Origin: a virus
Taxonomy: Duplodnaviria; Caudoviricetes
DNA length: 64,000 bases
Virus record (IMG/VR): IMGVR_UViG_3300021964_009400
Strand: one strand, 5' to 3'
Part shown: piece by piece, positions 8,069 to 59,258 of the stretch
How the letters are laid out: every line of letters starts with the position of its first letter
How positions within the stretch are numbered: the first letter of the stretch is position 1
Notes under the pieces: generated by a model
Told to the model about the DNA's origin: nothing
Databases searched by the model: none
The model's input: only the letters and a program-made list of their open reading frames with translations
Position numbers and translations under genes: made by a program

Positions 8069-8084
8069 ATGATAGGAATATAAT

Positions 8085-8672
8085 ATGCCAAGTATAAGTT
8101 CAAAATTAAGTTTAACATCAGCAGCGATAACCGCGAACACGGCTCTTGCAGATGTAGATTATATTAGAGGTGCCTTTAAGGTATATTCATCCTCTGATTT
8201 ATCTGGTATCGCTCCGAGCTATTTTTCGGATGGACAGATAATCTATGTCGAAGATAGTGGTTCATTATATAAAGCTAATGTTCAACTTGCTAATTTTATT
8301 GATGTATTTGAAGATTCAGTATCTTTTTCAGCTTGGTCATTTGATAGTGGTTCATTTGTAAGTGCTTCTTTTGATGGAGTTGCAACACTAACATTCTTTG
8401 GACAAGATATTGAAGGTTCAAATAGAGTATCAATGTCTGTTGATTTATCTGCATTAACTGGTTCTGGTGGAGGTGGTGGAAGTGGTGATATTACTGCAGT
8501 ATTCACATCAGATGAAGGTATTATTGGTGGTTCATCAAGTGGAAATGTTGTACTTGAATTAGACCCAGGAGATGGTATTGTTTTAAATTCAAATGGTATA
8601 AACGTAAGTACAGGCTCTACACATTTTATTGGTGGAGTACAAAAAGTAGAAATTGATGGAGATACTTTTTAG
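8085..8672 (+). CDS. Virion structural/fibre-associated protein
   Basis: 195 aa, Gly-rich linker, C-terminal EIDGDTF motif shared with neighbouring fibre genes. Confidence 0.6.
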   Translation: MPSISSKLSLTSAAITANTALADVDYIRGAFKVYSSSDLSGIAPSYFSDGQIIYVEDSGSLYKANVQLANFIDVFEDSVSFSAWSFDSGSFVSASFDGVATLTFFGQDIEGSNRVSMSVDLSALTGSGGGGGSGDITAVFTSDEGIIGGSSSGNVVLELDPGDGIVLNSNGINVSTGSTHFIGGVQKVEIDGDTF

Positions 8673-8705
8673 TATTAAAAAGATATTTTCATATTTATAT
8701 AATAT

Positions 8706-8740
8706 AAACACTATATAGTGTTTTATAAGGGTATATACCC
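8706..8740. repeat. Tandem perfect palindromes AAACACTATATAGTGTTT (8706-8723) and GGGTATATACCC (8729-8740)
   Basis: Read directly; both are centred on TATATA; intergenic, after an ATATTTATAT motif at 8691. Confidence 0.8.
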
Positions 8741-8828
8741 GTTGAACAATATGTTTCAAACACTTTTTAAATAAAGGTTATATAAAAAAAAACAAATAAT
8801 TAATTAACAAAAAAGGAAAAAATTAAAA

Positions 8829-11490: not shown

Positions 11491-11598
11491 ATACTTTTTA
11501 TTTTTTTATATTTATATAGGTGGAAGAATAGTATATTACATAACCAAAATTTAGGTGCAGTATATTTATAAGTAATATAAAAAGGACAATATAATTAA

Positions 11599-14500: not shown

Positions 14501-15897
14501 GGTTAAGTGCAATTGAAGCGGATAGTGGTTCTTATTTAAAAACAGTTGATATATCTTCAGATACTAATTTAGCAGTATCAGATACATCAGAAGTTAATAT
14601 GATTTTAACTAATGATACACTAAGTGCAGAATTAATTGGTGGTGTTGTATCTGGTTCTTCACAAGTAATAGATATTTTAAGTTCAATAAACACTTACACA
14701 TCTTCTAATGATAATGATATAACAGAATTATTCTCATCAGCATCAGACCATGAAGGTAGAATAGATACACTTGAAGGGGATGTACATGAGGACCCATTAA
14801 CATTTAATGATACAACAAATGTTGATTTAATTAGAAGTGGCGATGTAATTACTGCAAATCTTAAAGGTGGTGTTGTATCTGGTTCTTCACAAATAAACTA
14901 TTCTGAATTAAGTGGAATAAATAATAACATAATATCAGCATCATCTGATACTTCACAAGTAGATATGATTATCAATGGTGGAAGTATTTCTGCAAATCTT
15001 AAAGGTGGTGTAGTTAGTGGTTCATCACAAATAACATTTGCTGATTTAAATGGATTACCTGGTGGTATTGTATCTGGTTCATCTCAACTTACTTCATCAT
15101 ATGATACAAGATATGTAAATGCAACTGGTAATGAAAGTATTAGTGGAAATAAAACATTTGATAATAATGTTGTAATTAGTGGAGATTTAAATGTTGCAGG
15201 AACAACTACATATACATCAACAAATAATGTAAATATTGGTGATAATATTTTAGAATTAAACTTTGGTGGTTCTGCTACAACAAGTGGTCTTTTAACTAAA
15301 GATTCAACAGGTGGTTCAACTACAAGTGGTTCTCTTTTATGGGATGCCACAAATGATTATTGGAAAGCAGGCAAATTTGGTTCAGAAGCAAAAATTTTAC
15401 TTTCTTTAGGAGATGGTGTAGTAAGTGGTTCAGACCAAATAACAAAAACTTTACAAGAAGTAACAACTGCTGGAAATACTACATCCAATGCAGTATCGAT
15501 TACAAACTCAACGGCTTCAACAACTAAAACGACTGGTGCTCTTGTAGTAACTGGTGGTGTTGGTGTTAGTGGAGCAGTAAATGTTGGTGGTGATGTTGTT
15601 GCTTTTGCATCTTCAGATGAAAGGTTAAAAGACAATATTCAACCAATTTCTAACCCATTAGAAAAAATAAATTTAATTTCTGGTAATAGTTTTGTATGGA
15701 ATGAAGAAAAACAAAATATTTATAAAGGTAAGGATTATGGAGTTATTGCTCAAGAAGTAGAAAAAATTCTTCCAGAATTGGTACAAACACGAGAAGATGG
15801 TTTTAAAGCAGTAAAATATGATAAATTAATATCACTACTTATAGAAAGTGTAAAAGAATTATCAAAAGAGGTTAAAGAATTAAAAGAAAAAAATTAG
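11599..15897 (+). CDS. Long tail fibre with coiled-coil repeats and a C-terminal peptidase S74 intramolecular chaperone
   Basis: 1432 aa; C-terminus ASSDERLKDNI...YGVIAQEVEKILPELV...VKYDKLISLLIESVKEL is the S74 signature. Confidence 0.85.
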   Translation: MAYTLKFRRGTSFTDPQLAEPFFNTNSDTLQVGDGSSNITLVKLGSNTAGDITFTGDVNADNLTLSGDANITGNIILGGNITLGDSGSDEIQLNASLSGSLIPDSPSVYDIGSSTRKYKNLYVESASIENPSFPGSGLVSTSQQIDDFGFLQVGGDGVFSGSSQVTLNDADKTGFTGASSITTVGTISTGTWQGTIIDKTYLDTEVLNTSLNSYTSSNDNNITNIHSTTASFEDRLDQLSTETSSITTEQAAQDVRLDQLSAETGSITTEQAAQDSRLDQLSTETGSITTEQAAQDSRLDQLSTETGSIENEQAAQDVRLNQLSTETGSIENEQAAQDSRLDNVEIFTSSIDINISNIHSTTASFESRLDLLSDVSHSHSNKTELDTINQNLSTTSDVTFNTGSFTGNMTITGDLTVLGSSTEISSTELRIEDKLITVASGSADSAAADGAGLEIDGAGKSLKWDHNTSQFVLDAKVSSSVGFKGEGGELTGIDTDQVTEAGNLYYTDARVKQKMTDEVAHSGSFLGTATTSNLDEGTNLYWTETRFSASLDDRGVLSGSAHINDSLNSYTASNDTTNTTQNSRLDQLSTETGSISTEQAAQDSRLTNIEANTGSYLTTVDISDDTNLAVSDTSTVNMTLSGDTLSADVIGGVVSGSEQLSGTFLSKLGDSVVSSSAFSSPSQGTIRATINGIDTDVDSGLQTSDSPSFEGISLTSVSEVDNVEYTALFISSSNLLGTRELGTAAFLHYSNSIADGNSQVIGTAQATKNYIDTKVIEAGAGDITEVNSGLGLSGGALSGSATLTLDTGSTHFLNGVSAAGAPEGTISGSSQITSLGFISSSDSTVSLNAYTASNDINITNIHSTTSSFDSRLDNIESFTSSLDDSYVTESELAAATGALETKDNEQDSRLSNIESFTSSLDDSYVTEAELAAATGALETKDNTQDTRLDQLSTETGSISTEQAVQDQRLSAIEADSGSYLKTVDISSDTNLAVSDTSEVNMILTNDTLSAELIGGVVSGSSQVIDILSSINTYTSSNDNDITELFSSASDHEGRIDTLEGDVHEDPLTFNDTTNVDLIRSGDVITANLKGGVVSGSSQINYSELSGINNNIISASSDTSQVDMIINGGSISANLKGGVVSGSSQITFADLNGLPGGIVSGSSQLTSSYDTRYVNATGNESISGNKTFDNNVVISGDLNVAGTTTYTSTNNVNIGDNILELNFGGSATTSGLLTKDSTGGSTTSGSLLWDATNDYWKAGKFGSEAKILLSLGDGVVSGSDQITKTLQEVTTAGNTTSNAVSITNSTASTTKTTGALVVTGGVGVSGAVNVGGDVVAFASSDERLKDNIQPISNPLEKINLISGNSFVWNEEKQNIYKGKDYGVIAQEVEKILPELVQTREDGFKAVKYDKLISLLIESVKELSKEVKELKEKN
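12301..12630 (+). repeat. In-frame 63-bp (21-aa) tandem repeat, about 5 copies, unit RLDQLSTETGSITTEQAAQDS
   Basis: Units at 12421-12483 and 12484-12546 are near-identical at DNA level; 21 aa = 3 heptads. Confidence 0.9.
14206..14433 (+). repeat. In-frame 114-bp (38-aa) duplication SRLxNIESFTSSLDDSYVTExELAAATGALETKDNxQD
   Basis: Copies start at 14206 and 14320. Confidence 0.85.
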
Positions 15898-15909
15898 GAA
15901 ACCAAAAGA

Positions 15910-16557: not shown

Positions 16558-16610
16558 TATTTAATAAAATAAATAGTTATATTTATATAAGAAATAAGGA
16601 AAAATAAAAA

Positions 16611-20542: not shown

Positions 20543-21541
20543 ATGGTATATGATGTGTATTATACTACTGGTGGTGGACCTTGGGTAAACGCTGGAACTG
20601 ATACTTGGGTAAATCTATGGATGGAATTGGTTGCACCTAAATTAGATGTAAAACCAATTCTTTTAATTCATAGAAACAAACCCAAAGGTCATGAAGATTA
20701 TCAATTTCCAATTGAAGCCCATTGGCATGGTGATGATATAGAGTTCGCAGAAAATCTTTGTAAAAATGCTAGAAGAATTAATATACTTCATGGACATTAT
20801 ACTCCAATGAAAGTAATTGAAGATAATAAAGATAAAATTCATTCAAATGTTTTACATAATTCAGTAAATCATATTATAAAATCTCAAATGGGTGATGATT
20901 CAAGTTTTGTTTGGCATCCTTATTTAGATTCAAGTTGGGAAAAAAGAATTAATAAATTGGCAACACATTCTATATGGATAGGTTTGTATGATATAATATA
21001 TGAAAATAAAAACATTACTAATTTTTATGAGTTTAAAAAAAATCTTCCTCTTAGTAAATCAAATAAACTTGGATTTGCTGCAAGATGTGAGGGAAGAAAA
21101 AATCCAAGGTATGTAGATGAAATTCCATCTTATATATTTACCAATTCAAAAGAATTTAATGTTATTTGGAAACAAGGAGTAAAGGTAGATACATCAAAAT
21201 CTAAAGTTTATCATTATAAATCAGAATTTAAAGATACATTTTATAATATGGATTGGGGAATATCTCATTCATGTTTTAACAATGAACCATTTGGTTATGG
21301 AATATTTGAAGCCGTAGATTATGGTAAAATACCTATAATTTATACAAATTGGTGTAAAGATTTAGATTATCCTTACAGAGCATCATCTAAAAAAGAATTT
21401 AAAGATATTTATATAAGGTTATGTAATGTCTCTTATGAGGAAAGAAATAAATGGTTTAATAAAATTAAATCTTTTATGATAGATAAATTTTCTAACAAAG
21501 AACAATGGATAAGAGAGTTACTTAATATTTATAATATATAG
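20543..21541 (+). CDS. Glycosyltransferase, GT-B fold (GT4-like)
   Basis: GFAARCEGRKN and NEPFGYGIFEAVDYGKIPI match the E-x-F-G-x4-E-A donor-binding motif. Confidence 0.75.
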   Translation: MVYDVYYTTGGGPWVNAGTDTWVNLWMELVAPKLDVKPILLIHRNKPKGHEDYQFPIEAHWHGDDIEFAENLCKNARRINILHGHYTPMKVIEDNKDKIHSNVLHNSVNHIIKSQMGDDSSFVWHPYLDSSWEKRINKLATHSIWIGLYDIIYENKNITNFYEFKKNLPLSKSNKLGFAARCEGRKNPRYVDEIPSYIFTNSKEFNVIWKQGVKVDTSKSKVYHYKSEFKDTFYNMDWGISHSCFNNEPFGYGIFEAVDYGKIPIIYTNWCKDLDYPYRASSKKEFKDIYIRLCNVSYEERNKWFNKIKSFMIDKFSNKEQWIRELLNIYNI

Positions 21542-21551
21542 GAATTCATAT

Positions 21552-22868: not shown

Positions 22869-22932
22869 TTTATGTTTTCAAAAAAACTATATATTTATAT
22901 ATAGTAATAAAAATTAACTAAAATATATCAAA

Positions 22933-23256: not shown

Positions 23257-23266
23257 TATACTTATA
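23257..23266 (+). promoter_or_regulatory. Putative late promoter motif (representative copy before the sheath gene)
   Basis: TATACTTATA; consensus (T/A)ATA(T/C)TTAT(A/T) also at 8691, 11507, 11561, 16578, 21524, 22890, 25658, 26261, 27290, 36055, 40482, 41128, 42336, 44544, 51344. Confidence 0.65.
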
Positions 23267-23310
23267 TAAGAGTATTATTATACAAAAATCATAACAAGGA
23301 GTAATATAAA

Positions 23311-25635: not shown

Positions 25636-25687
25636 ATTAACAAAAATAAAAGGAAACTATATTTATTAGTATAATAGGAGAAAAAAA

Positions 25688-26230: not shown

Positions 26231-26293
26231 TATGTCTATATTTCAACTTTTTAAAAAGTATATATTTATATAAAAACAATTAAAGTTAAGTTT

Positions 26294-27285: not shown

Positions 27286-27324
27286 ACCCTATATTTATAT
27301 TAGTATAACTACATAGGAGAAATA

Positions 27325-27568: not shown

Positions 27569-30082
27569 ATGGCTGAAGAAAGAACAAGATTAAAAGTATT
27601 ATTAGAACTTAAACAAGTACAGGTTGAAATAAATAAACTTGAACAAGAAGGTGCTAAAAAATCTGCAAAAGCAGCTAAAGATTTACAAACTTATAGAGAA
27701 TATGAGTTAGAATTGATGAAAGAATCATCAAAACTACTTGAAAGAAATTTAAAAAAATATGCAGCAGAAGAAAAAAGTATAGGTAGCATATCTAATGCTT
27801 ACCAATCTTTAAAAACATCTCAATTCGAAACAGTCAATATAGCCAAATCAGCCATTGGCTTAAAAGATGAAGAAATTAACCAAGTAACTAATTTACTTTC
27901 ATTATCAAGAGATTTATCAGAACTTACTATCGAGGACGAAATTCAAATAAAAGCAAAAACAACAGAATATGAAAATGCATTAGGAAATCTTTCTAAGAAT
28001 ATAACAGGAAATAAGAAATTATTAACTTCTCTTGAAAAACAAAATGAATTAGCACTTACTTATACAAAACAAACCCAAACTCAAAAAAAAGTAAATGAAG
28101 CAATGATAGATGCTCAAGAAAAAGTTCAAAAAACTTTTCAAGGCATTAGTGAAACAGTAGGAATAACATTACAAAAACTAAAAAGTGGAAGAGGTGCAAT
28201 AGGATTTTTAGTTTTAGGAGCTGGAAAGTTTGCAGAAAAACTTGGTGAAGCAAATAAACAATTAGGTAGAGTTGGTGAAGGATTAGGTGGTGCATATACT
28301 ACTACTGCAGCATTAGGATTTCTTTTCGATAGTAATGTTGAATCAATAAAAGCATTAAGTACAGAATTTGGTGGATTAGAAAAAGCATCAGATAGAATAC
28401 TCGTAAGTACAAACTTAATAGCAAATAACTTTGGAATTAGTGCAACTGATGCAGCAAAATTACAACAACAATTTGCAGCTTTAAATAATGGTTCAATTGA
28501 TATAGCAAATAATCTTATAGAAACAACACAACAATTTGCATTACAAAACAATCTGATACCATCAGCACTTATGGCTGATTTAGCAGCAAATACAGAAAAT
28601 TTTGCTTTATTTGGTAAAGATGGTGGTAGAAATATTTTACAAGCTGCAGGTTATGCTGCTAAACTTGGTATTTCTTTAGATAAAGTTGCTGGTGTTGCTG
28701 AAAATTTATTAGATTTTGAAAGTTCGATTACTAAAGAATTAGAATTAAGTGCTTTATTAGGTAAAACTCTAAATCTTGATAAAGCTAGACAACTTGCATT
28801 TGATAATGATATTGCAGGTGCAACACAAGAGGTATTAAGACAAATTGGTGGTATTGCTGCATTTGAAAGAATGAATTACTACCAAAGAAAACAAACTGCA
28901 GATTTATTAGGAGTATCGGTAGAAGAATTTAAGAAAATGGCACTTAATCAAAACAAAGCAAATAGTTTAGGTGCTATTCAAACTGAACAGTTTTCAAACC
29001 AAAATGAATTTTTGGGAATGATTGGAAATAAATTTGCAGGAACAATATTAAAAGGTGCTGGTAATTTCTTATTATTAATGGCACTTGCAAATAAGAAAAC
29101 ATCAATGTTAGCTGGATTAATGAATGGGATTGGTAAAGCCATTACATTTTTACCAAGAATGATGATAAAATTCATAAAACACCTTGTTACTGCTAATGCT
29201 TTAACAAGAGCACAAAAATTGTATTCCAATAAACAAATAGCAGCAGGCTTTGGAGGAAAAGCAGCAAAAGATATGTTAGCTAAAAAATTAGCTAGTACAA
29301 CAGCTATTTCAAATACTGCATCAACAACAACTGCTACTGCTAGTGCAACATCAGCATCTAAAACTGCTAGTGTAGGTGCAAGTTTAAAAGCATTAGCAGT
29401 GGGATTACGAGCAATGGGTACTAAACAAGTTTTATTTGGTGCATTAAATTTAATACCAACTGCTTTAGGATTTGCTGCAATGACAGTTGGGGCAATTGGT
29501 TTAGCAGCAGTTGCAACACTTGGACCAGCTGCAGGAGTTGGATTAACAAGTTTAGCTAGTGGAATGATTGCTTTAGGAGCCAGTGCTAAAGTTGCATTAA
29601 TTGGAGCTGGAGTATTAGCAGCAATAGGAGTTGCAACAATACCATTAACATATGCATTATCCTTATTAGCACCATTAATAGATTCAGTAGCAAATGGTAT
29701 AGTATCATTTGTAAGTGTGATTACATTAGAAAAAGCAGCTGCAATTGGTTTATTATCACTTGCCTTTTATGGTCTTGCTGCTTCATTGACAGCACTAGGA
29801 ACTGCAGGTATATTTGCTTTACCAACTTTATTAGGGATAGCAGCTGCAGCAGGTGGTCTTGCTATTGTTGCTGATATATTTGGTATAGGTGGTAGTTCAA
29901 CTGAAACAAGTGCTCTTGAGAGCGGTGGTGAAACTTTTGAACAACAATCACTAAAGTTCCAAGAAAGAATGGCAAACGCACTTGAAAGAGGCCATGTAAT
30001 AAAAATGAATGGACAAGTAGTTGGTAAAACAATATTTGGTAAAGAAGATGAAAGTTTAAGTAATAATTCAGGATTAAATTAA
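27569..30082 (+). CDS. Tape measure protein
   Basis: 837 aa; helical N-terminal half and Ala/Gly/Leu-rich hydrophobic C-terminal half; canonical position after the chaperones. Confidence 0.8.
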   Translation: MAEERTRLKVLLELKQVQVEINKLEQEGAKKSAKAAKDLQTYREYELELMKESSKLLERNLKKYAAEEKSIGSISNAYQSLKTSQFETVNIAKSAIGLKDEEINQVTNLLSLSRDLSELTIEDEIQIKAKTTEYENALGNLSKNITGNKKLLTSLEKQNELALTYTKQTQTQKKVNEAMIDAQEKVQKTFQGISETVGITLQKLKSGRGAIGFLVLGAGKFAEKLGEANKQLGRVGEGLGGAYTTTAALGFLFDSNVESIKALSTEFGGLEKASDRILVSTNLIANNFGISATDAAKLQQQFAALNNGSIDIANNLIETTQQFALQNNLIPSALMADLAANTENFALFGKDGGRNILQAAGYAAKLGISLDKVAGVAENLLDFESSITKELELSALLGKTLNLDKARQLAFDNDIAGATQEVLRQIGGIAAFERMNYYQRKQTADLLGVSVEEFKKMALNQNKANSLGAIQTEQFSNQNEFLGMIGNKFAGTILKGAGNFLLLMALANKKTSMLAGLMNGIGKAITFLPRMMIKFIKHLVTANALTRAQKLYSNKQIAAGFGGKAAKDMLAKKLASTTAISNTASTTTATASATSASKTASVGASLKALAVGLRAMGTKQVLFGALNLIPTALGFAAMTVGAIGLAAVATLGPAAGVGLTSLASGMIALGASAKVALIGAGVLAAIGVATIPLTYALSLLAPLIDSVANGIVSFVSVITLEKAAAIGLLSLAFYGLAASLTALGTAGIFALPTLLGIAAAAGGLAIVADIFGIGGSSTETSALESGGETFEQQSLKFQERMANALERGHVIKMNGQVVGKTIFGKEDESLSNNSGLN

Positions 30083-37474: not shown

Positions 37475-37528
37475 GAAAAAAGCCATTGTAGTCTCGGCTT
37501 TTTTTCGTATATTTACTATGTAAATGAG
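37475..37528 (+). promoter_or_regulatory. Repeated promoter/hairpin cassette, copy 2
   Basis: GAAAAAAGCCATTGTAGTCTCGGCTTTTTTTCGTATATTTACTATGTAAATGAG. Confidence 0.8.
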
Positions 37529-38432: not shown

Positions 38433-38999
38433 ATGGGAGTAGATGTTTCGGGTAAAAACCCAATAATTCGTTCACCAAAACCAGAAACTCCAAACTGGCA
38501 AACTGCAAGTGAAGAAGAAAAAGAAAAATACTTTAAATTAGATTCAAAGTGGAATAAAGAAAATCCTGGTGATTACTTTAGAAGTAATTGGTGGGGTTGG
38601 AGACCATTATCACAATTATGTAAAACCGTAGATTCAATACATAATCTTGATATTGATTTTTCATATTGGGGTTCTAATGATGGTAGAGGTTTAGAAACTC
38701 AAGAAGAATGTACCAAACTTGCAGATGCATTAGAATCATTTATATCTAAAATTGATTTTGAAGATGATGAAGATTGGTTTGGAATTTACACAGGTTCTTG
38801 GTCAACCTTAGATGGTGGATTTGTAGATGATAAAATCACAAATAAATTAGATGAACAATATCAATGGGGTGATGTTATCAGACAATCAATTATGACTGAT
38901 AGTGGTACAGTTGTAACACCTTCACATAGAGTTTACAAAGGACATATAGATAGATTTATTTCATTCCTTAGAGAATGTGGTGGATTTGAAATTTGGTAA
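38433..38999 (+). CDS. Hypothetical acidic protein
   Basis: 188 aa; YFRSNWWGWRPL..FLRECGGFEIW. Confidence 0.75.
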   Translation: MGVDVSGKNPIIRSPKPETPNWQTASEEEKEKYFKLDSKWNKENPGDYFRSNWWGWRPLSQLCKTVDSIHNLDIDFSYWGSNDGRGLETQEECTKLADALESFISKIDFEDDEDWFGIYTGSWSTLDGGFVDDKITNKLDEQYQWGDVIRQSIMTDSGTVVTPSHRVYKGHIDRFISFLRECGGFEIW

Positions 39000-39023
39000 A
39001 TTCAAAAAAAATTCGTATATTTG
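38992..39023 (+). promoter_or_regulatory. Bacteroidota sigma70-type promoter
   Basis: TTTG (38992)-N20-TATATTTG (39016). Confidence 0.75.
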
Positions 39024-39041: not shown

Positions 39042-39179
39042 GTGGTAAAATCAGATTTAAAAGAATTAGATGGTATGTATTATGTAGGACACCTCATTGA
39101 TATAGATGGTAGTGGTTATGTAGATGAGGAAACTGCAGAACTAATCCTATTAGAATATAATGCAGGAGTTGCTGAATGA
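39042..39179 (+). CDS. Small acidic ORF not in the supplied track (45 aa)
   Basis: GTG start, MVKSDLKELDGMYYVGHLIDIDGSGYVDEETAELILLEYNAGVAE; its TGA overlaps the polA ATG (ATGA); lies directly after the promoter. Confidence 0.55.
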   Translation: MVKSDLKELDGMYYVGHLIDIDGSGYVDEETAELILLEYNAGVAE

Positions 39180-40483
39180 TAATAGTAGAAACTAATAAAG
39201 AGAAAGAACAATTTCTCGAATATTGGAATAACGAACAATCAACGATTATTCCAATTTGGGAAGATTTGGAAAGACATCCTATGAATAATGGGTTGTCCTT
39301 TCTTTATATTGCCTTTTCCCAAGAACATTTTATCTTACCGTTTAATCACAATGATTGTGAAAAATTAGAAATAGATTTATCAACCTCGAATCAAATGAAG
39401 TTTTGTTGGAATAAAAAAGGATTACTACAAGCAAAACTCAATATAACCAACCTCAAAGATGTACAATCATCTTTATTCTTTAATAAGAATGAATTATATC
39501 CTTTCTATGAGAAAATAGAGGTTCTAACGAACTTTTACCATAGATTGGGTATAAGAGATGATTTAGGTAAATCAATCCCTATAATGAAGTGGGGTGAGGT
39601 TCTACGAGAGATTGTTGGTGAATGGGGAGATATTTCTCCTTCACATCCAAATTATCTTAGAGAATTCCTTAAAGATAATACAACTTGGATTGATGATACG
39701 ATGATTCCTATCCTTTCAGATTTAGAACAAAGTGGTTTGGGGGTCGATAGGAAAAAATTTATTGATAGATGGCCTCAAAACTTAAAACACATTTACCTAC
39801 ATCCACAAGGAGATGTTGTTTATACCGAATATAATCCTTACACAATAACAAGTAGACCTTCAAACAGACATGGTGGTGTTAACTTCTCTGCTCTTAACAA
39901 AAAAGATGGTTCACGAGAATGTTTTATTCCACCCGAAGATTCTCTATTCTTACAATTTGATTACGATGCATACCATGTACGAATTATTGGTAAGTTGATT
40001 GGATATGATTTACCCGATACTTCGGTTCACCAATGGTTGGCAGACCAATATGGTTGTGATTATGATGAAAGTAAAGGAAGAACCTTTAGAATCCTTTATG
40101 GTGGTGTAAGTGATGAAGATAGAAAAATCCCATTCTTTGATAAGGTGGATAAGTTTATACAATCCTTAAATGATAAAGCACTTCAAAATGGATATATTCA
40201 AACTCCAAAAGGAAGAAAAATCCCATTAAGTTGGATTGAAAAACCCAATTCACAAAAGTTATTCAATTATTTACTACAAGCAACCGAAACCGAGTTCAAT
40301 ATCGAGGCGATGAAAAAGTTGAAAGAAAACGACCTACCCCTACCTATCCTTTACACATACGATAGTTTTTTATTTGAGTTCGATAATTCTGAGGTTGATA
40401 CTATTAAAAAGGTTAAGTCCGTCCTTGAAAGTTTTGGATTTCCTGTCAAAGCAGATTGGGGTAAGGATTACTCAAAAATCTAA
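39176..40483 (+). CDS. polA: Compact, divergent family A DNA polymerase
   Basis: TITSRPS, motif A FDYDAYHVR, motif B KGRTFRILYG, NYLLQAT, motif C TYDSFLFE. Confidence 0.75.
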   Translation: MIIVETNKEKEQFLEYWNNEQSTIIPIWEDLERHPMNNGLSFLYIAFSQEHFILPFNHNDCEKLEIDLSTSNQMKFCWNKKGLLQAKLNITNLKDVQSSLFFNKNELYPFYEKIEVLTNFYHRLGIRDDLGKSIPIMKWGEVLREIVGEWGDISPSHPNYLREFLKDNTTWIDDTMIPILSDLEQSGLGVDRKKFIDRWPQNLKHIYLHPQGDVVYTEYNPYTITSRPSNRHGGVNFSALNKKDGSRECFIPPEDSLFLQFDYDAYHVRIIGKLIGYDLPDTSVHQWLADQYGCDYDESKGRTFRILYGGVSDEDRKIPFFDKVDKFIQSLNDKALQNGYIQTPKGRKIPLSWIEKPNSQKLFNYLLQATETEFNIEAMKKLKENDLPLPILYTYDSFLFEFDNSEVDTIKKVKSVLESFGFPVKADWGKDYSKI

Positions 40484-40517
40484 TATTTATATATACATTA
40501 AAAAAAGAAGTAAAATT

Positions 40518-41129
40518 ATGAAATTATTTAAAATATTACTGCTATCACTTGTATTAGTTGGATGTGAAGCAGAAGAAATTGTTGCACAAGAAAAAAGAAC
40601 AGAAGTGATTATTGAAAACCAAGTTTTTAAAGTTTGGTACAATGAAGTAAAAGAACAACCAGAAAAATTGATTTATACATCTACTAATAGACCAAAGAAT
40701 GTAGATAGAGGTTCAATGAACTTTTACACAGAAAGTGAAGTTTATACTTCTAACAATGCAGATTACTATAATAATATATGGGATAAAGGACATCTTGCAC
40801 CAGCTGCAACTTATTCTGATTCTATGGTAAATCTAAAACAAACTTTTTCATTTTTAAATTGTGCTCTACAAGAACAAAACCTAAACAGAGGTGAGTGGAG
40901 ATTATTAGAAGAACAAGAAAGAGAATGGGATGATGAACAAAATCTTACAATCACAGTTGAATTAGTTTGGGATGAGGGATTTGAAATTCTACCGACAGGT
41001 GGTCATATTCCAACTGATATGATAAAACACATTTACTTTGAAAAAGATGGTGAATGGAGATGTTTTGAATTTGAGAATGTAAAACCAACTAAAGGTTGGG
41101 AAGAACACGAAGTAACCCATTCTCATTAA
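40518..41129 (+). CDS. Lipoprotein DNA/RNA non-specific endonuclease (NucA/EndA-type); start re-called at 40518
   Basis: MKLFKILLLSLVLVGC lipobox; WDKGHLAPAA active-site motif; TFSFLNCALQEQNLNRGEWRLLE. Confidence 0.85.
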   Translation: MKLFKILLLSLVLVGCEAEEIVAQEKRTEVIIENQVFKVWYNEVKEQPEKLIYTSTNRPKNVDRGSMNFYTESEVYTSNNADYYNNIWDKGHLAPAATYSDSMVNLKQTFSFLNCALQEQNLNRGEWRLLEEQEREWDDEQNLTITVELVWDEGFEILPTGGHIPTDMIKHIYFEKDGEWRCFEFENVKPTKGWEEHEVTHSH

Positions 41130-41156
41130 TACTTATAGTAAAGAGGAGATTTAATT

Positions 41157-41444
41157 ATGGCTTTCAACTTTCCTGATGGAGCATCAAGTGGACAAACCCA
41201 TACTGCAAGTAATGGTACGGTTTATCGTTATAATGGAACAACATGGATAGTTGATTCTGCGGCTACTACGACAACTTTTGATTCAAAATATTTAAACACA
41301 GATGGAGATGGAATCATAAGTGGTTCATCTCAATTAGATGGATTTGTAAGTTCATCTTCTACTAATATTATAGAAGTAATAACATCTGCATCTTATGCAG
41401 GAATTACACCAGTTAGTGGTACATTATATATCATACAAGGATAA
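41157..41444 (+). CDS. Small virion/fibre-associated protein
   Basis: MAFNFPDG..YRYNGTTW N-terminus and GIISGSSQL as in the fibre genes; late motif and GAGGAG. Confidence 0.7.
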   Translation: MAFNFPDGASSGQTHTASNGTVYRYNGTTWIVDSAATTTTFDSKYLNTDGDGIISGSSQLDGFVSSSSTNIIEVITSASYAGITPVSGTLYIIQG

Positions 41445-41446
41445 CA

Positions 41447-42337
41447 ATGGATAGAAGAATTAATACTGCACAAAACATTTATTTAAATAATGTTTCGGTG
41501 GATGATGTTTATTATAATAATGAACACATCTGGCCAACAGGTAGTAATACTCCTTGGTCACCAAGTTCAGATATAACAACAGTTGCTTGGATTGATGCAT
41601 CAGATTCTTCAAACTATACAACAAGTGGAGCAACTTTAACTTCGGTAACTGATAAAGCAGGAACTTATACAATGACAGTTGGTGGAACTCCAACTACTGG
41701 TAATACTCAAAATGGATTAAATGTATTTGATTTTGATGGTAATGGTGAGTATTTACAAAGTACAACTTACTCTACACAGGTATCATCAGGTAATCATTGG
41801 GCAATTGGTGTATTTAGATTTGAAGGAACAAATAGTACTCAAGATTCTATTTGGAGTTATGAAACAAATCAATCACCAAAACGAGATTATGCAATCAGTA
41901 GTGGTAACTCATCAAACTCATGGCCTGGTGAATTAGACCTCGATGGTTTAGTATTTAACAGAATTAGTACTACAATTGGTAATTTAGAATTGTGGGATGA
42001 TAAAAGTTTAACAAGAAATCAATATCACATTGTTACTTGTTGGTTCAATAAGAGTGGAAACCAAATTGGTGTTAGAGTAGATGGTTCAAATGCATTTACA
42101 CCAGTAAACGATTACGATAATTCATTATCAACAAACCAAGAATTAAGATTGATGAGAAACAGGTCATCACAAGAATTAGATGGTAAGTTAGCAGAGTTCT
42201 TTGCAGTAGCGGATATACCTGGTACAAGTGGTACTGATTTAACACATTTAATAAAAGCAGAAGGTTATCTTGCACATAAATGGGGATTAGAAAGTTCTCT
42301 ACCAAGTGACCATTTATATAAGAATTCTGCACCTTAA
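41447..42337 (+). CDS. Concanavalin-A/LamG-like lectin-fold virion protein
   Basis: WIDASD, NGLNVFDFDG, YHIVT, LDGKLAEFF..LIKAEGYLAHKWG pattern. Confidence 0.7.
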   Translation: MDRRINTAQNIYLNNVSVDDVYYNNEHIWPTGSNTPWSPSSDITTVAWIDASDSSNYTTSGATLTSVTDKAGTYTMTVGGTPTTGNTQNGLNVFDFDGNGEYLQSTTYSTQVSSGNHWAIGVFRFEGTNSTQDSIWSYETNQSPKRDYAISSGNSSNSWPGELDLDGLVFNRISTTIGNLELWDDKSLTRNQYHIVTCWFNKSGNQIGVRVDGSNAFTPVNDYDNSLSTNQELRLMRNRSSQELDGKLAEFFAVADIPGTSGTDLTHLIKAEGYLAHKWGLESSLPSDHLYKNSAP

Positions 42338-42352
42338 TATTTATAGTATAGT

Positions 42353-44464
42353 ATGGATTATAAAGAAATCATAGATAAGTTAGTAAGAGAACTCTCATAT
42401 AGAGTAGGTGTTCCTAATATACATAATAAGGAACATCAATCAATCATGTCCGAAATTCTTTCAGAATGGGGTGAGTATGAAGTAAAAGATACTATATTTG
42501 AATTCCTTACCGAAAAAGATGAAACTTATACTGCAAGAAAAAAAGATACAGGTGAAACATCAGTATTCAAATCTAAAGATGCAAGAGATAATGCAATTAA
42601 AGCAGGAACCCATGAACCCATTGATAAGAAAGATGATAAAAAGAAAACAAAAAAAGATACTCCTAAAGTAAATATTTTTGATAAAACACCTAAAAGTACT
42701 TTAGATAGAACTAATTTTGATAAAAAAGATGATAAAAAATATAAAGATAATCCAGGCGGTCCTACTCGAAAAGAAATTTATGATGATTTAAATAATGGTA
42801 ATATAGATGTTCTTTCGGAATATCAAGATGGAGTATCTATTAATAGAACGAAAAGGATTTCTGGTGCAGGTGGAAAAAAAGCAAGTGAAGGTGAATCAAA
42901 ATTCTGTGGTGCAGTAGATACTAATTTTGAAAAATGGGAGGAAGATAATAAACAAACAATAGATAGAGTACAAATTGAAATTAAAAATAGAAGTAAAACT
43001 GCTGATGAAAACAGAACAGCAATTCAGTTAGGAATGGATGTAGATAGTCCAGAATTCAATAGGTATCTAGCTAAAAGAGAAATTTGGGTTCAACAAAAGA
43101 TTGAAGAAAACAAAGAAACATTAACTTTTGTAAAAGATTTTAGTAGAAATAAAAAAACTAAAGAAAATCCCATGGGTCCATATACCGAATGGATGAATGC
43201 AGCATTTGATGGTGGAATACAAACCCAAAAACATATTAAAAAACTAGATATATTTGATTTATCTAAACCACATAAAACAATTCAATCGACCACAGAAGTT
43301 AATGAAGCAGTTCAGGCACATTTAGAAGATAATCTAAAAAATGCAAAAACTGATGAAGATAAAGCACACGCAAAAAAACAACTTAAAAATTGGAATAAAT
43401 ATAAGAGTTATCATGATACCTACATTATAGGTAAAGATAAAAAAGGTAGGACAACATATTTTGGTATATCAAATAAAAAAGGAGATTCTTTAAAAGACCC
43501 ACAAAACAATAGTACTCCTGCTAAAAGATTTAAAGCCTTAAAAGAAAGATATGGTGAAAAAGTTGCAAAAGGAGTAGCATCTTCATTAGATAAAAACATA
43601 AAACGGGTTGAAGGAGTAAAACAAAAGACTGTAAGAACTGCTAGTACTCTTGAAATTACAGATGATTTTGTAAAGATATGTGAAACATCAAAAATGGAAC
43701 CATATATTCAAAAGTTAAGAGATTTAGGTAAATTTAGAGATTATCTAAAAGCCAAAGGTTTAAATCCAGATACAATGGGTACAAAACAACTTTTAGTTGA
43801 AATGAATAATCATTCACAACAAATACTTAAAGCTGGTGGAAAGCCATCATATGGTACATATGGTAAAATTGCAATTAAGATTGGAGAATTATCACAAGTT
43901 GATAAATTTAAACAAGCAAATCCAAATATAAATTTTGATGATAGTTCTATACAAAAATCTATTGATATAAAACAAACTGAAAAAGAAACAGTTAAAGAAT
44001 CACATAAATCGTTGGTATCTGATTTGGAAGAAGTAGATAGTCCAGATGGATACCATCCAACTAAAAATAAAGATGCAGATAATGGACCTCATCAACAAGG
44101 TTATGTTAGTGGTGTATTAGATGCTTGTCACATTGATTCATATATTGATAGTGAAGATGACAATGGTATGTTAGTTCAAATGGGAATTAATACAGTTACA
44201 CCATCAATGATTAGAGAGTGTGTTGCACAACGAAGTGGATATAAAGGTGATTTTTCAACACCAGAAGGAAAAAGAAAACTTAAAGAACATTTAAGAAAAA
44301 GATGTAGAATTACACCAGGTGAATCATCTGTAAGAATTATGAATGAAGGAAAAGAAGAAGAATTATTTGATGATACTTGGAGAACTGCTGGTGAGAGTCA
44401 AAAAATAGCAACTGGCTTTGGTGAAGGTATGAGAGATTGTTTAATTACTAAAGCAGCAAAATAA
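42353..44464 (+). CDS. Large Lys/Asp-rich hypothetical protein (possible internal virion protein)
   Basis: 703 aa; late motif at 42336; no recognised domain. Confidence 0.6.
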   Translation: MDYKEIIDKLVRELSYRVGVPNIHNKEHQSIMSEILSEWGEYEVKDTIFEFLTEKDETYTARKKDTGETSVFKSKDARDNAIKAGTHEPIDKKDDKKKTKKDTPKVNIFDKTPKSTLDRTNFDKKDDKKYKDNPGGPTRKEIYDDLNNGNIDVLSEYQDGVSINRTKRISGAGGKKASEGESKFCGAVDTNFEKWEEDNKQTIDRVQIEIKNRSKTADENRTAIQLGMDVDSPEFNRYLAKREIWVQQKIEENKETLTFVKDFSRNKKTKENPMGPYTEWMNAAFDGGIQTQKHIKKLDIFDLSKPHKTIQSTTEVNEAVQAHLEDNLKNAKTDEDKAHAKKQLKNWNKYKSYHDTYIIGKDKKGRTTYFGISNKKGDSLKDPQNNSTPAKRFKALKERYGEKVAKGVASSLDKNIKRVEGVKQKTVRTASTLEITDDFVKICETSKMEPYIQKLRDLGKFRDYLKAKGLNPDTMGTKQLLVEMNNHSQQILKAGGKPSYGTYGKIAIKIGELSQVDKFKQANPNINFDDSSIQKSIDIKQTEKETVKESHKSLVSDLEEVDSPDGYHPTKNKDADNGPHQQGYVSGVLDACHIDSYIDSEDDNGMLVQMGINTVTPSMIRECVAQRSGYKGDFSTPEGKRKLKEHLRKRCRITPGESSVRIMNEGKEEELFDDTWRTAGESQKIATGFGEGMRDCLITKAAK

Positions 44465-44583
44465 TTTAAAAACAACAATAAACACTCCTATTTCGAGGTA
44501 ATGTACATAATTTACATTATTTAGTAGTTTCCAAAACCCATTTTATATTTATATAAGAAACAATAGAGAGAGATAGGATTGAT

Positions 44584-44985
44584 ATGCAAACACAGTTACT
44601 CTGTACCTTTACAAATAAAGAGGAACTTCAAAATACCCTACAACTTATTAGAGAAACATATCACATAGTTTACAATTATATTTATGTTTTACAAAATAAG
44701 GGTAACTTAGAAAACCTTTTTGTTACATATAATATAGATACTCAATATAAACCAGATAGACCATTATCTGATACTATTTTGGTACATCGTAAAAAACAAA
44801 GTAATACTTTGTACACAATTAATGCACTCAACGAGTTAGTTAAAGAAGAGAATGGTGGGGTTTTAGATAAATCTTTTTCTATTGATTGGGATAAATTCAA
44901 AAACTCAATCATCGTTACCAATGTAGAAGGCACAAAAAAGATTTCTACAAGAATCTTCGAGGTAATAGAATTTAATCAAAAATAA
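44584..44985 (+). CDS. Hypothetical protein
   Basis: 133 aa; MQTQLLCTFT..TILVHRKKQSNTLYTINALN. Confidence 0.75.
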   Translation: MQTQLLCTFTNKEELQNTLQLIRETYHIVYNYIYVLQNKGNLENLFVTYNIDTQYKPDRPLSDTILVHRKKQSNTLYTINALNELVKEENGGVLDKSFSIDWDKFKNSIIVTNVEGTKKISTRIFEVIEFNQK

Positions 44986-45107
44986 TTTAACAAAACTTTA
45001 ACACTTTTTATTTTTTTATGTCAAAAAATAATCGTACATTTATAATGTAAGTTTTTGAGTGGTTTTCAAACCCTCCATCAAAGAAACAAAAAGATGTAAA
45101 AAGATTG

Positions 45108-45128: not shown

Positions 45129-45151
45129 CTACAATTAAATTAAAAATAATT

Positions 45152-45205
45152 AAAAAAAGCCATTGTAGTCTCAATTTTTTTTCGTATATTTACTATGTAA
45201 ATGAG
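45152..45205 (+). promoter_or_regulatory. Repeated promoter cassette, copy 3
   Basis: AAAAAAAGCCATTGTAGTCTCAATTTTTTTTCGTATATTTACTATGTAAATGAG. Confidence 0.8.
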
Positions 45206-46297: not shown

Positions 46298-46310
46298 ATT
46301 CGTATATTAG
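46279..46310 (+). promoter_or_regulatory. Bacteroidota sigma70-type promoter
   Basis: TTTG (46279)-N20-TATATTAG (46303), one mismatch to consensus. Confidence 0.65.
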
Positions 46311-46758: not shown

Positions 46759-46774
46759 ATTAAAAAAAAATACG

Positions 46775-46822
46775 AAAAGCCATTGTAGTCTCAATTTTTT
46801 TTCGTATATTTACATAGTAAAT
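46775..46822 (+). promoter_or_regulatory. Repeated promoter cassette, copy 4 (followed by a GTGTGA-GAGT-TCACAC hairpin at 46823-46838)
   Basis: GAAAAGCCATTGTAGTCTCAATTTTTTTTCGTATATTTACATAGTAAAT. Confidence 0.8.
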
Positions 46823-51310: not shown

Positions 51311-51383
51311 ACTCAAAAATTCGGTGTATTTTTTGAGTTTTATTATATTTATATATACACCGAGTGTTGTTAGTTTAGCACTC
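51311..51383 (+). promoter_or_regulatory. gp32 upstream region: hairpin, late-type motif, then a second hairpin
   Basis: ACTCAAAAA/TTTTTGAGT stem (51311-51338), TATATTTATA (51344), GAGTGTT/AGCACTC stem (51362-51383). Confidence 0.6.
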
Positions 51384-54688: not shown

Positions 54689-54720
54689 TTTGGTAGTTTC
54701 AAATATTTTTCGTATATTTG
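54689..54720 (+). promoter_or_regulatory. Bacteroidota sigma70-type promoter
   Basis: TTTG (54689)-N20-TATATTTG (54713). Confidence 0.8.
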
Positions 54721-56104: not shown

Positions 56105-56264
56105 TCTATCAAAAAAATTATTACACCTAAACCAATAAAAAAATTAAATGTATAAAAATAAAAATTAATTGAAAATCTATTTCGTTTTTCAATATATACT
56201 ATAATTATAAACACGACCAGATAGTTGGTCACTTCAAAAACAAAAATTAAAAAAGGAATATTTT

Positions 56265-56435: not shown

Positions 56436-56444
56436 GGTTATAAC

Positions 56445-57440
56445 ATGAGTAAATTATTCCAAGAAAGAATCCCTTTCAAACCATTCGAATATCCAATCTA
56501 CTATACAGAAGGTTGGTTGAAACAGGCACAAGCATTTTGGCTCCATACTGAGATACCCATGCAAATGGATGTTAAAGATTGGAACGAAACACTTACACCT
56601 GCAGAAAAGAATTTGGTTGGAAATATCTTACTTGGATTTGCTCAAACCGAATGTGCAGTTTCTGATTATTGGACTAACATGGTAACCAAGTGGTTTCCTA
56701 AACATGAAATCAGACAGATGGCTATGATGTTTGGTTCACAAGAAACTATTCACGCTACAGCTTATTCATATCTAAATGAGACATTAGGATTAGAAGATTT
56801 CTCGGCATTTTTGCACGAACCTGCAACTGCTGAGAAATTTGAACTCCTAACTTCAACAACGGCTGATTGGACACATGAAGATTTACAAACCAACGAAAAG
56901 GCAAGACAAGAAGTTGGTAGAAGTTTAGCAATCTTTTCAGCATTCGCAGAAGGAGTTAGTTTATATTCTTCTTTTGCGGTACTTTACTCATTTCAAATGA
57001 GAAACAAACTTAAAGGTATTGGACAACAAATGAAGTGGAGTGTAAGAGATGAATCTCTACATTCTCGTATGGGTTGTCAATTGTTCAGACATATGTGTGA
57101 TGAATATCCAGAATTGTTAGAACAATGTAAAAATTCAATAGAAGAAGCATCTAAACTGATTATTGATTTAGAATGTAACTTTATTGATAAAATGTTCGAA
57201 ATGGGTGATTTAGAAAATCTTGAAAAAGATGATTTAAAAGAATTCATTAAAGATAGAACAAATCAAAAATTACAAGAATTAGGATACGAACCAATTCATG
57301 AATTCAATAAAAAGAAATCAGAAAAGTTAGAATGGTTCTATCATCTTACAGGTGGTCATACTCACACCGATTTCTTTGCTATTAGACCTACCGATTATTC
57401 TAAGGCAAATGAAGGTGAAGATTGGGATGACTTATTTTAA
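56445..57440 (+). CDS. nrdB: Ribonucleotide reductase class Ia beta subunit
   Basis: FWLHTE, ETIHATAY, FAEGVSLYSSF, WSVRDESLH, DFF tail. Confidence 0.95.
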   Translation: MSKLFQERIPFKPFEYPIYYTEGWLKQAQAFWLHTEIPMQMDVKDWNETLTPAEKNLVGNILLGFAQTECAVSDYWTNMVTKWFPKHEIRQMAMMFGSQETIHATAYSYLNETLGLEDFSAFLHEPATAEKFELLTSTTADWTHEDLQTNEKARQEVGRSLAIFSAFAEGVSLYSSFAVLYSFQMRNKLKGIGQQMKWSVRDESLHSRMGCQLFRHMCDEYPELLEQCKNSIEEASKLIIDLECNFIDKMFEMGDLENLEKDDLKEFIKDRTNQKLQELGYEPIHEFNKKKSEKLEWFYHLTGGHTHTDFFAIRPTDYSKANEGEDWDDLF

Positions 57441-57454
57441 ATAAATAATAGATT

Positions 57455-59239
57455 ATGGCAAGTAAAAACTATGGCGAAGAGCTAGGGTGGGAAATTGATG
57501 TTGATTTTCCATCATGGGGTAACACAGAGATATATGTAAAAACTATATCTAAAGGATATTTACTTCCTGGTGAAAAACCTAAAGATGCTTATTGGAGAGT
57601 TGCAACAAGAGTTGCTCAAAGATTAGGTAAACCTCAAATGGCAACTAAGTTCTTCGATTATATTTGGAAAGGTTGGTTGAATTTAGCAACACCAGTTCTT
57701 TCTAATACTGGTACTGATAGAGGATTACCTATATCTTGTTTTGGTATCGATGTTGCCGATTCGATTTATGATATTGGTAAAAAGAATTTAGAACTAATGT
57801 TACTTGCAAAACATGGAGGTGGAGTTGGTATTGGTGTGAACCAAATTAGACCAGCAGGAGCAACCATTACAGGCAATGGAACATCTGATGGTGTTGTACC
57901 ATTTTGTAAAATATATGATTCTACAATCCTTGCTACAAACCAAGGTTCAGTAAGAAGAGGTGCTGCTTCAGTTAACCTTAATATTGAACACAAAGACTTT
58001 GAAGAGTGGTTAGAAATTAGAGAACCTAAAGGAGATGTAAATAGACAATCACTAAATCTACACCAATGTGCAGTTGTAGGTGATAAGTTTATGAGAAAAC
58101 TCGAACAAGGTGAACCAGAAGCAAGAAGAAAGTGGGGAAAATTACTACAAAAAAGAAAAGCAACTGGTGAACCTTATATTATGTTTAAGGGCAATATAAA
58201 CAAACAAAACCCTCAAATGTATAAAAAGAATGGATTAAAAGTTCATATGACAAATATTTGTTCTGAAATTACATTACATACAGATGAGAACCATTCATTT
58301 GTTTGTTGTTTATCTTCAATCAACTTAGCAAAATATAATGAGTGGAGAGATACTGATTTAATTTATACTGCAACTTGGTTCTTAGATGGTGTATTATCCG
58401 AATTTATTCAGAAAGCAAAAAACATGAGAGGATTCGAAAATTCAGTTGCATCTGCTGAAAAGGGTAGAGCATTAGGATTAGGAGTTTTAGGTTGGCATAC
58501 TTACTTACAACAAAGAGGTATTCCATTTGAAGGAATGGAAGCACAATTCGAAACTCGTAAAATCTTTTCACAAATTAAAATCGAATCAGATAGAGCTTCA
58601 AGAGATTTAGCAACAGAATATGGTGAACCTCTTTGGTGTAGAGAAAGTGGATTTAGAAATACTCACCTTAGAGCAGTTGCTCCAACAGTTAGTAACTCTA
58701 AATTAGCTGGAAATGTATCTGCTGGTATCGAACCTTGGGCGGCGAATATATTCACCGAACAAACTGCAAAGGGAACTTTTATTAGAAAGAATACAGAGTT
58801 GGTAAAGATATTGAGAAAAGCAGGTATCAATAATAAAGAAACTTGGGATAAGATTTTAGAAGATGGAGGTTCAGTACAAGATATCAAAGAATTAGATAAG
58901 TGGTGTTACTTAGATGGTAAAATAGTTCTTTGTAAAGATATCACTAATGGTGATAGAGAAAAAATCTACCCTGTCAAGGATGTGTTCAGAACATTCAAAG
59001 AAATAAATCAAATGGACTTGGTTAAACAAGCTGGTGTTAGACAACAGTACATTGACCAAGGAGTTTCATTAAATCTTGCATTCCCTTCGATTGCAACACC
59101 GAAGTGGATTAATCAAGTTACATTAGAGGCTTGGAAACAAGGAATTAAAACTCTATATTATATGAGAACTGAATCAGTTCTTAGAGGAGATATCGCAACA
59201 AGAGCGGTAGACCCTGATTGTGTTGCGTGTGATGGTTAA
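57455..59239 (+). CDS. nrdA: Ribonucleotide reductase class Ia alpha subunit (no ATP cone)
   Basis: PISCFG, QGSVRRGA, TNICSEI, VAPTVSNS, DQGVSLN, TLYYMR, C-terminal CVAC. Confidence 0.95.
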   Translation: MASKNYGEELGWEIDVDFPSWGNTEIYVKTISKGYLLPGEKPKDAYWRVATRVAQRLGKPQMATKFFDYIWKGWLNLATPVLSNTGTDRGLPISCFGIDVADSIYDIGKKNLELMLLAKHGGGVGIGVNQIRPAGATITGNGTSDGVVPFCKIYDSTILATNQGSVRRGAASVNLNIEHKDFEEWLEIREPKGDVNRQSLNLHQCAVVGDKFMRKLEQGEPEARRKWGKLLQKRKATGEPYIMFKGNINKQNPQMYKKNGLKVHMTNICSEITLHTDENHSFVCCLSSINLAKYNEWRDTDLIYTATWFLDGVLSEFIQKAKNMRGFENSVASAEKGRALGLGVLGWHTYLQQRGIPFEGMEAQFETRKIFSQIKIESDRASRDLATEYGEPLWCRESGFRNTHLRAVAPTVSNSKLAGNVSAGIEPWAANIFTEQTAKGTFIRKNTELVKILRKAGINNKETWDKILEDGGSVQDIKELDKWCYLDGKIVLCKDITNGDREKIYPVKDVFRTFKEINQMDLVKQAGVRQQYIDQGVSLNLAFPSIATPKWINQVTLEAWKQGIKTLYYMRTESVLRGDIATRAVDPDCVACDG

Positions 59240-59258
59240 TTAAATTTAGGAGAAAAAA

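Follow-up and report, generated by a model that had tools for sequence, protein, structure and literature searches.

Why would a phage that probably infects Flavobacteria-type bacteria, whose ribosomes normally ignore Shine-Dalgarno (SD) sequences, carry such sequences ahead of a particular set of its genes? The question is raised by IMG/VR record IMGVR_UViG_3300021964_009400, a 66,490-bp linear fragment of an uncultured, marine, T4-like large phage (approx. 33% complete according to CheckV), of which a stretch of 64,000 nucleotides, hereafter the window, was analysed. All window genes lie on the + strand, and the GC content is about 31%. A sequence-only reading had noted AGGA(G) motifs before late genes and A/T-rich leaders before genes behind host-type promoters, and had proposed that the phage switches ribosomes to SD-dependent translation late in infection. 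For comparison we used G009, a relative of 275,970 bp rated 100% complete that shares synteny with the window, their nucleotide identity being 72-88%, along with two more complete relatives (G010 and G011) and further relatives that carry a gene for ribosomal protein bS21 (G001, G002 and G004-G006).

Shine-Dalgarno sites on a subset of late genes

Every AGGA(G) or GAGGAG motif cited in the sequence-only reading (before the sheath, tube and thioredoxin (trx) genes and before 27325, 41157, 8085, 8829, 11599, 15910, 16611, 21552, 44584 and 56265) was found in its place, and the genes it listed as SD-free behind host-type promoters are indeed SD-free, although one of them starts at 37524 rather than at 37563. 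The SD-less exceptions 19312, 22933 and 26294 were borne out too. To these we add sites before 86, 1575, 30084, 41447 and 39176, giving the following set:

70..75, + strand: SD AAAGGA, 10 nt before ATG 86 (virion protein); kept in G009 and G001
1558..1561, + strand: SD-like GGAG, 13 nt before ATG 1575; conserved in relatives
8074..8077, + strand: SD AGGA, 7 nt before ATG 8085; present in G001, absent from G009
8812..8817, + strand: SD AAAGGA, ATG 8829 (baseplate/virion protein)
11581..11586, + strand: SD AAAGGA, ATG 11599 (tail fibre, 1432 aa)
15896..15899, + strand: SD AGGA, ATG 15910 (fibre-like)
16596..16600, + strand: SD AAGGA, ATG 16611 (tail fibre)
21540..21543, + strand: SD AGGA, ATG 21552 (virion protein)
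23296..23301, + strand: SD AAGGAG, 9 nt before ATG 23311 (tail sheath)
25676..25680, + strand: SD AGGAG, 7 nt before ATG 25688 (tail tube)
27315..27319, + strand: SD AGGAG, 5 nt before ATG 27325 (76-aa protein)
30070..30073, + strand: SD AGGA, ATG 30084 (785-aa tail protein); AGGAG in G009 and G001, in a different leader
41143..41148, + strand: SD GAGGAG, ATG 41157
41437..41441, + strand: SD AAGGA, ATG 41447
44575..44578, + strand: SD AGGA, ATG 44584
39164..39168, + strand: AGGAG, early-class exception, ATG 39176 (DNA polymerase part); inside the upstream small open reading frame (ORF)
56252..56257, + strand: AAAGGA, early-class exception, ATG 56265 (56-aa ORF ahead of RNR genes); absent from G009
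59248..59252, + strand: SD AGGAG, early-class exception, ATG 59259 (thioredoxin); kept in G009, in a different leader

In the window, AGGA start positions peak at -16 to -9 from the ATG. The motif occupies about -17 to -8 in 17 of the 59 window genes, against 2.1 expected from shuffled leaders. The distribution is strongly skewed by module, with AGGA 5-12 nt ahead of the start in 14/28 late and 3/31 early genes (Fisher p=0.0012), and by promoter class: among first genes, 10 of the 15 that lie within 150 nt of the phage motif TATATTTATATA have AGGA, compared with none of the seven behind TTCGTATATTT (p=0.005). Across the whole window the mean anti-SD pairing energy at gene starts is no lower than at internal ATGs; the genome is thus SD-poor overall, which confines the SD signal to a distinct subset of genes rather than making it a genome-wide habit. 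The strongest window sites (AGGAG) precede the sheath and tube genes, 27325 and 41157, while the leaders of the baseplate hub and wedge genes and of several others have no SD.

The motifs AGGA, AAGGAG, AAAGGA, GAGGAG and AGGAG all pair with the (C)UCCUUU end of the 16S tail (tail sequence as given in PMC7797042), with duplex energies of -4 to -9 kcal/mol and SD-to-ATG gaps of 5-13 nt. The SD types of G009 are AAAGGA, AGGA, AAGGAG and AGGAG, never GGAGG, with the GGA core mostly 5-11 nt from the ATG. The sequence-only reading had staked its case on an enrichment in late over early genes across a whole genome, and in G009 this enrichment is present. Within 150 nt of a promoter motif, 17/39 late but only 1/28 host-type genes have an SD; within 1 kb, and with genes classed by promoter motif alone, the figures are 27/69 and 3/72 (p=2e-7). 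Mean anti-SD pairing energies in G009 are -2.8 kcal/mol for the late class and -1.1 kcal/mol for the host-type class (p=1e-6).

The two gene classes differ in a second aspect of start context, as an ATGGCA (Met-Ala) start is found in 12/28 late and 5/31 early window genes (p=0.04), and in 15/69 late and 4/72 early genes of G009 (p=0.006).

Comparison of the window with G009 gene by gene showed an SD in both genomes for 14 genes, in the window only for four, in G009 only for two and in neither for the remainder. SD status is kept in this way among the window, G009 and G001 even though the surrounding leaders often differ. The AGGAG of the sheath gene is present in 78/78 relatives (74-93% protein identity), and an alignment of 42 unique sheath leaders shows AGGAGTA to be invariant, the SD and the promoter being the two most conserved blocks. 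Around relatives of the first window gene (59-92% identity), all 51 loci examined have SDs on 20-75% of the neighbouring genes, nearly all on at least 29%. This pattern makes it very likely that the AGGA(G)/AAAGGA motifs are functional SDs under selection, retained on a gene-specific subset of late mRNAs and strongest on those for high-copy virion proteins such as sheath, tube and, in the relatives, the major capsid protein. Sheath and tube sequences of relatives were also seen in RNA libraries (four runs of one study), as contigs that carry neither 5' ends nor expression ranks.

One might suppose that short motifs of 4-6 nt would arise by chance in an AT-rich genome, or from the composition of A/G-rich leaders. 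This explanation is ruled out for practical purposes: in 2000 shuffles the observed count was never reached, the positional peak is sharp and the sites are kept across diverged leaders.

Two promoter classes and the gene layout

Two kinds of promoter accompany the two gene classes. A phage motif, TATATTTATATAAG, stands ahead of many structural genes, and a host-like motif, TTTGG-N16-TTTTCGTATATTTG, stands ahead of early genes at eight sites. An unsupervised count of enriched 9-mers in the intergenic DNA of G009 returns just these two promoter motifs. The sites in the window are:

8690..8703, + strand: late-type promoter motif CATATTTATATAAT
11507..11520, + strand: late-type promoter motif
16578..16591, + strand: late-type promoter motif TATATTTATATAAG
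22890..22903, + strand: late-type promoter motif; gene 22933 has no SD
23257..23270, + strand: late-type promoter motif ahead of the sheath gene; highly conserved block in relatives
26261..26274, + strand: late-type promoter motif; baseplate hub gene 26294 has no SD
27290..27303, + strand: late-type promoter motif
40482..40495, + strand: late-type promoter motif ahead of nuclease gene 40518
44544..44557, + strand: late-type promoter motif
51344..51357, + strand: late-type promoter motif ahead of SSB gene 51437 (no SD)
37504..37515, + strand: host-type promoter core TTCGTATATTTA, repeated cassette
38992..39023, + strand: host-type promoter TTTG-N20-TATATTTG
45181..45192, + strand: host-type promoter core, repeated cassette
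46299..46310, + strand: host-type promoter core
46801..46812, + strand: host-type promoter core, repeated cassette
54689..54720, + strand: host-type promoter TTTG-N20-TATATTTG ahead of DnaB
59708..59719, + strand: host-type promoter core ahead of 59742
63839..63870, + strand: host-type promoter TTTG-N20-TATATTTG, 5 nt before ATG 63876, near-leaderless

Measured against the Bacteroidota sigma-A consensus (-33 TTTG and -7 TAnnTTTG, approx. 19 nt apart), the window has three full + strand matches before ORFs and five near matches that share TTCGTATATTT; the same sites can alternatively be read as a general sigma-70 TTG-N17-TATATT. The host-type promoters stop 5-27 nt before the ATG. At 63859-63876 and 37504-37524 the -7 element ends only 5-8 nt from the ATG, so that the early mRNAs made there should be leaderless or nearly so. 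Three copies of a cassette of approximately 60 nt (37464-37523, 45141-45200 and 46761-46820) consist of an A-run, GCCATTGTAGTCTC(GG/AA)C, a T-run and then TTCGTATATTTAC; since the first copy can fold a GCC/GGC hairpin, the cassette resembles a terminator fused to an early promoter.

The layout of the window, with gene functions assigned by PHROG and Pfam scans, is as follows:

86 to ~36,800, + strand: tail, baseplate and fibre module, including sheath 23311 and tube 25688
36,900-40,500, + strand: small-gene block and one DNA polymerase part
40,500-45,000, + strand: nuclease and four function-unassigned genes, with phage-type promoters in front
45,200 onward, + strand: replication and nucleotide-metabolism genes (helicases, methyltransferases, SSB, UvsX, exonuclease, DnaB, RNR, thioredoxin and a thymidylate-synthase-like gene)

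The thioredoxin gene (59248-59522 with its leader) is the sole early-region gene with a strong SD conserved in G009, and its product may be needed into the late phase. The window encodes, at 39021-40483, a 435-aa fragment of DNA polymerase A that shares an ATGA overlap with a small ORF in front of it. This enzyme is apparently split, as it is in the Flavobacterium phage discussed below (gp001 and gp199). The gene at 40518-41129 encodes a non-specific endonuclease (PF01223) with a lipoprotein-like signal (LVGC) and a late-type promoter in front, features which suggest that the nuclease is probably exported and made late.

Phage bS21 and the contrast phages

In Flavobacterium johnsoniae the 3' tail of 16S rRNA is held by bS21, bS18 and bS6, with Tyr54 of bS21 stacking on A1534 where the tail turns into its pocket; a weakly basic C-terminal domain of bS21 is a signature of the phylum (PMC7797042). 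With Y54A as the only change, strong-SD templates gain in output, 3-fold in vitro and by 70% in vivo, and depletion of bS21 alone frees the anti-SD (PMC9976891). The bS21 gene itself, rpsU, is the sole strong-SD gene of F. johnsoniae (PMC13000453).

The sequence-only reading had called for a search for rpsU/bS21 in the rest of the genome. This gave nothing within the 66-kb contig and exactly one bS21 gene in every sufficiently covered relative: G001, G002, G004-G006 and G009-G011 have one PF01165 match each, at 47-57 bits (gathering cut-off 27). Two hidden Markov models run at maximum sensitivity turned up no second bS21 gene in G009, in G001 or in Microcystis phage Mel-JY01, which is discussed below. 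In these relatives the gene lies in the head module, between those for the prohead protease and the major capsid protein, and synteny with G001 predicts it some 5.2 kb ahead of the first position of the window. The phage proteins are 80-113 aa long. Among 1.84 billion cluster representatives, 238 match at E<=1e-3; two scans of 185,579 species genomes yielded no close bacterial homologue, only two matches in Bacilli metagenome-assembled genomes at 35% identity, and a tblastn search of deposited phages gave only weak matches in Pseudomonas jumbo phages. The closest solved structure is that of Porphyromonas gingivalis bS21.

All 30 distinct clade copies have Arg at the Tyr54 column, 12 residues past the KPS/T motif, and this column aligns without gaps with Tyr54 of Bacteroidia-type bS21 and with residues 9-54 of 7jil_z. 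The net charge of the C-terminal part is +9 to +17 in the clade and -1 to +4 in Bacteroidia-type proteins. As judged from these alignments, the clade bS21 lacks both marks of the Bacteroidia-type, anti-SD-occluding protein: the aromatic Tyr54 and the weakly basic C-terminal domain. The late promoter motif stands ahead of every one of the 30 copies, from which we infer late expression. None of the 30 genes has a canonically spaced SD, and those of distant subclades have no SD at all, which fits a gene first read by SD-blind ribosomes. In the closer subclade (L086:1477-1800 in G001, L097 and L098) an AGGAGA abuts the ATG with a gap of 1-2 nt, far too tight for normal SD geometry; this could provide negative feedback once anti-SD-free ribosomes accumulate.

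The closest deposited phages are Flavobacterium phage vB_FspM_immuto (NC_055915; hereafter immuto), Microcystis phage Mel-JY01 (PP395634.1) and the uncultured LR756508.1, immuto being the only Bacteroidota-host isolate of the three. Immuto is syntenic with the window and has the same late motif, ATTTATA, as well as the same early promoter core, TTCnTATATTT(A/G) with a TTG upstream. Unlike the window clade, it has no bS21 gene and is essentially SD-free: its complete genome has AGGA on 1/58 late and 5/164 early genes, and its orthologous sheath and tube leaders have no SD. Small phages with a Tyr-type bS21 carry an SD on 1/57 genes, capsid and terminase included. Three proteins of candidate independent Arg-type lineages (P0127, P0124 and P0131), which come from contigs of 1.4-3 kb or without accompanying DNA, and one Tyr-type protein (P0194, from a contig of 917 nt) stand outside the SD comparison.

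A possible late change in ribosome selectivity

The explanation we favour, to which we give about an even chance, is that selected SDs on late genes and SD-free, A/T-rich early leaders work together with a phage bS21 that frees the anti-SD for late mRNAs. Early genes would be expressed from host-type promoters with SD-free, A/T-rich leaders typical of Bacteroidia. At the onset of the late phase, phage bS21 would be made from its late promoter in the head module and, with its Arg for Tyr54 and its long C-terminal tail of strongly basic character, would replace host bS21 on 30S subunits. The substitute would not keep the 3' tail of 16S rRNA in the bS21/bS18/bS6 pocket, and the freed anti-SD would pair with late leaders, favouring late phage mRNAs over SD-less host and early mRNAs. 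The stronger version, in which the Arg-type protein turns SD-blind Bacteroidia ribosomes into SD-reading ones and so opens a private channel for late mRNAs, with host and early mRNAs sidelined and the AGGAGA at the bS21 start acting as negative feedback, we hold more tentatively and at rather less than an even chance. Since the clade protein lacks both Tyr54 and the weakly basic C-terminal domain, the switch suggested by the sequence-only reading gains a concrete candidate part to set beside the dichotomy itself; the restriction to one clade, the inferred host and the published short-SD result hold it back, and from sequence comparison the switch is plausible but unproven.

Several observations weigh against this explanation. 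In the window and a further 2.5 kb (66.5 kb of this genome) there is no match to PF01165 or to the clade hidden Markov model, and the bS21 gene of this particular phage is placed by synteny with relatives. About half of the late window genes have no SD. In the more distant LR756508.1, Met occupies the Tyr54 column of bS21, and AGGA/GGAG is present on 0/23 genes of the tail region. Mel-JY01 has a head-module bS21 with a non-aromatic residue and SDs on 11/23 late genes, with no clear early/late split, and this phage, the closest relative in culture to carry bS21, is listed with Microcystis as its host. All positive cases fall in one clade, so the association between bS21 and SDs is close to a single evolutionary event. 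The phage SDs are 4-7 nt long, whereas McNutt et al. found that stimulation requires an extended SD and that a weak-SD mRNA is not helped by Y54A or by C-terminally truncated ribosomes (PMC9976891); furthermore, bS18 and bS6 also hold the 16S tail.

Two side observations concern these contrast phages. Late genes of LR756508.1 (484 kb, locus L224) lack AGGA and often have GAGA 8-12 nt before the ATG, which may be a different leader signal. Mel-JY01 (loci L213-L223) has Bacteroidota-style promoters, TTTG-N19-CGTATATTTG, and a GC-rich intergenic repeat, TTCGGGCACAAGTGGA.

The sequence-only reading proposed a Bacteroidota host and named a host outside that phylum as a refutation. On this count the idea was not refuted: the early promoters match those of the Flavobacterium isolate immuto, which is indirect support, although the Microcystis label of Mel-JY01 conflicts. 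As Mel-JY01 shares these promoters, either its label or the promoter argument must be weak, and its host assignment deserves a check; no psbA was found in any relative examined, Mel-JY01 included. We also considered a type IX secretion system (T9SS) tail domain as a host marker for the clade and dropped it, as the match is clear in immuto alone, sub-threshold in G010 and G011 and absent from G009 and G001. The promoter type, the kinship with immuto and the match to the P. gingivalis bS21 structure lead us to consider a Bacteroidota host likely, with a fair degree of confidence.

A rival with some force, though on balance unlikely, is that these are ordinary SDs that involve no change in the ribosome: the host reads SDs, or a standing bS21-free subpopulation of ribosomes suffices, and the dichotomy reflects tuning of yield, with abundant late proteins given an SD while early mRNAs are very short or leaderless and in low demand. 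The placement of the strongest SDs on sheath, tube and major capsid protein, with none on the low-copy baseplate hub and wedge genes, is what such tuning would produce, as is the short distance between host-type promoters and start codons. It would also accommodate Mel-JY01, a phage labelled cyanobacterial with SDs in both gene classes, and the fact that, in the bS21 sequences retrieved, the Tyr54 column is most often occupied by Arg or Lys. Yet genes internal to early operons likewise have no SD, the early promoters are those of a Flavobacterium phage, immuto has the same architecture and next to no SDs, and F. johnsoniae has a single strong-SD gene (PMC13000453). A phage product might instead free the anti-SD late in infection by eliminating, degrading or modifying bS21, bS18 or bS6 of the host, leaving the phage bS21 with a different role such as keeping ribosomes active. 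The effect of bS21 depletion in F. johnsoniae, and the published suggestion of a phage protease acting on host bS21 (PMC9976891), lend this idea substance, and in LR756508.1 a non-aromatic bS21 occurs without AGGA sites. We nevertheless regard it as improbable: this analysis identified no candidate factor, and Arg is invariant in the 30 copies of a protein that co-occurs with SD sites in every covered relative.

More improbable still, in our view, is recognition of the purine motif by a factor other than 16S rRNA, such as a phage RNA-binding activator or repressor, bS1 or a RegB-like nuclease. The motif is short and purine-rich, and T4 RegB, which cuts at GGAG within SDs, is a precedent for targeting of this kind. 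However, complementarity that extends to AAAGGAG matches the 16S tail at the canonical spacing of 5-11 nt, and general PHROG scans of the window turned up no RegB-like gene.

Freeing of the anti-SD by phage bS21 has points of contact with several known systems. Chen et al. (2022, ISME Commun) proposed that phage bS21 replaces the host protein and favours phage late transcripts (PMC9723584). Their freshwater Bacteroidetes myophages also have bS21 among head genes (protease, scaffold and major capsid protein) and express it with late genes, where we read late expression from the promoter motif alone. They differ in having an aromatic residue at Tyr54, argued to mimic anti-SD blocking by the host, where Arg is invariant here, and in the strand of the bS21 gene, which here is co-directional with its neighbours; SD use per gene class was not analysed in that study. 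Autoregulation of F. johnsoniae rpsU (PMC7797042, PMC9976891 and PMC13000453) follows the same logic, in that without a functional Tyr54-bearing C-terminal region of bS21 the anti-SD is exposed and SD mRNAs gain. It concerns one host gene with an extended SD and the absence of bS21, compared with dozens of late genes, short SDs and a proposed substitute protein here. Marine phages, among them Pelagibacter phage HTVC008M, also encode a bS21 that is able to enter host ribosomes (Mizuno et al. 2019, as cited in PMC9976891). For HTVC008M no connection with SD use is reported, and between this phage and the clade bS21 there is no tblastn match at E<=1e-3. Full-text literature searches found no description of late-gene-specific SDs in Bacteroidota phages, though one may still exist.

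Of all ribosomal proteins, bS21 is the one that viruses encode most often. In this clade, absence of the anti-SD-locking tyrosine coincides with late-only SDs in a host group that otherwise does not use them, which turns the idea of ribosome hijacking into a specific prediction, testable in the existing genetic and in vitro translation systems of F. johnsoniae. If the prediction is true, a virus would alter the mRNA selectivity of its host's ribosomes by swapping a single protein, and this would help to explain why Bacteroidia retain a hidden anti-SD.

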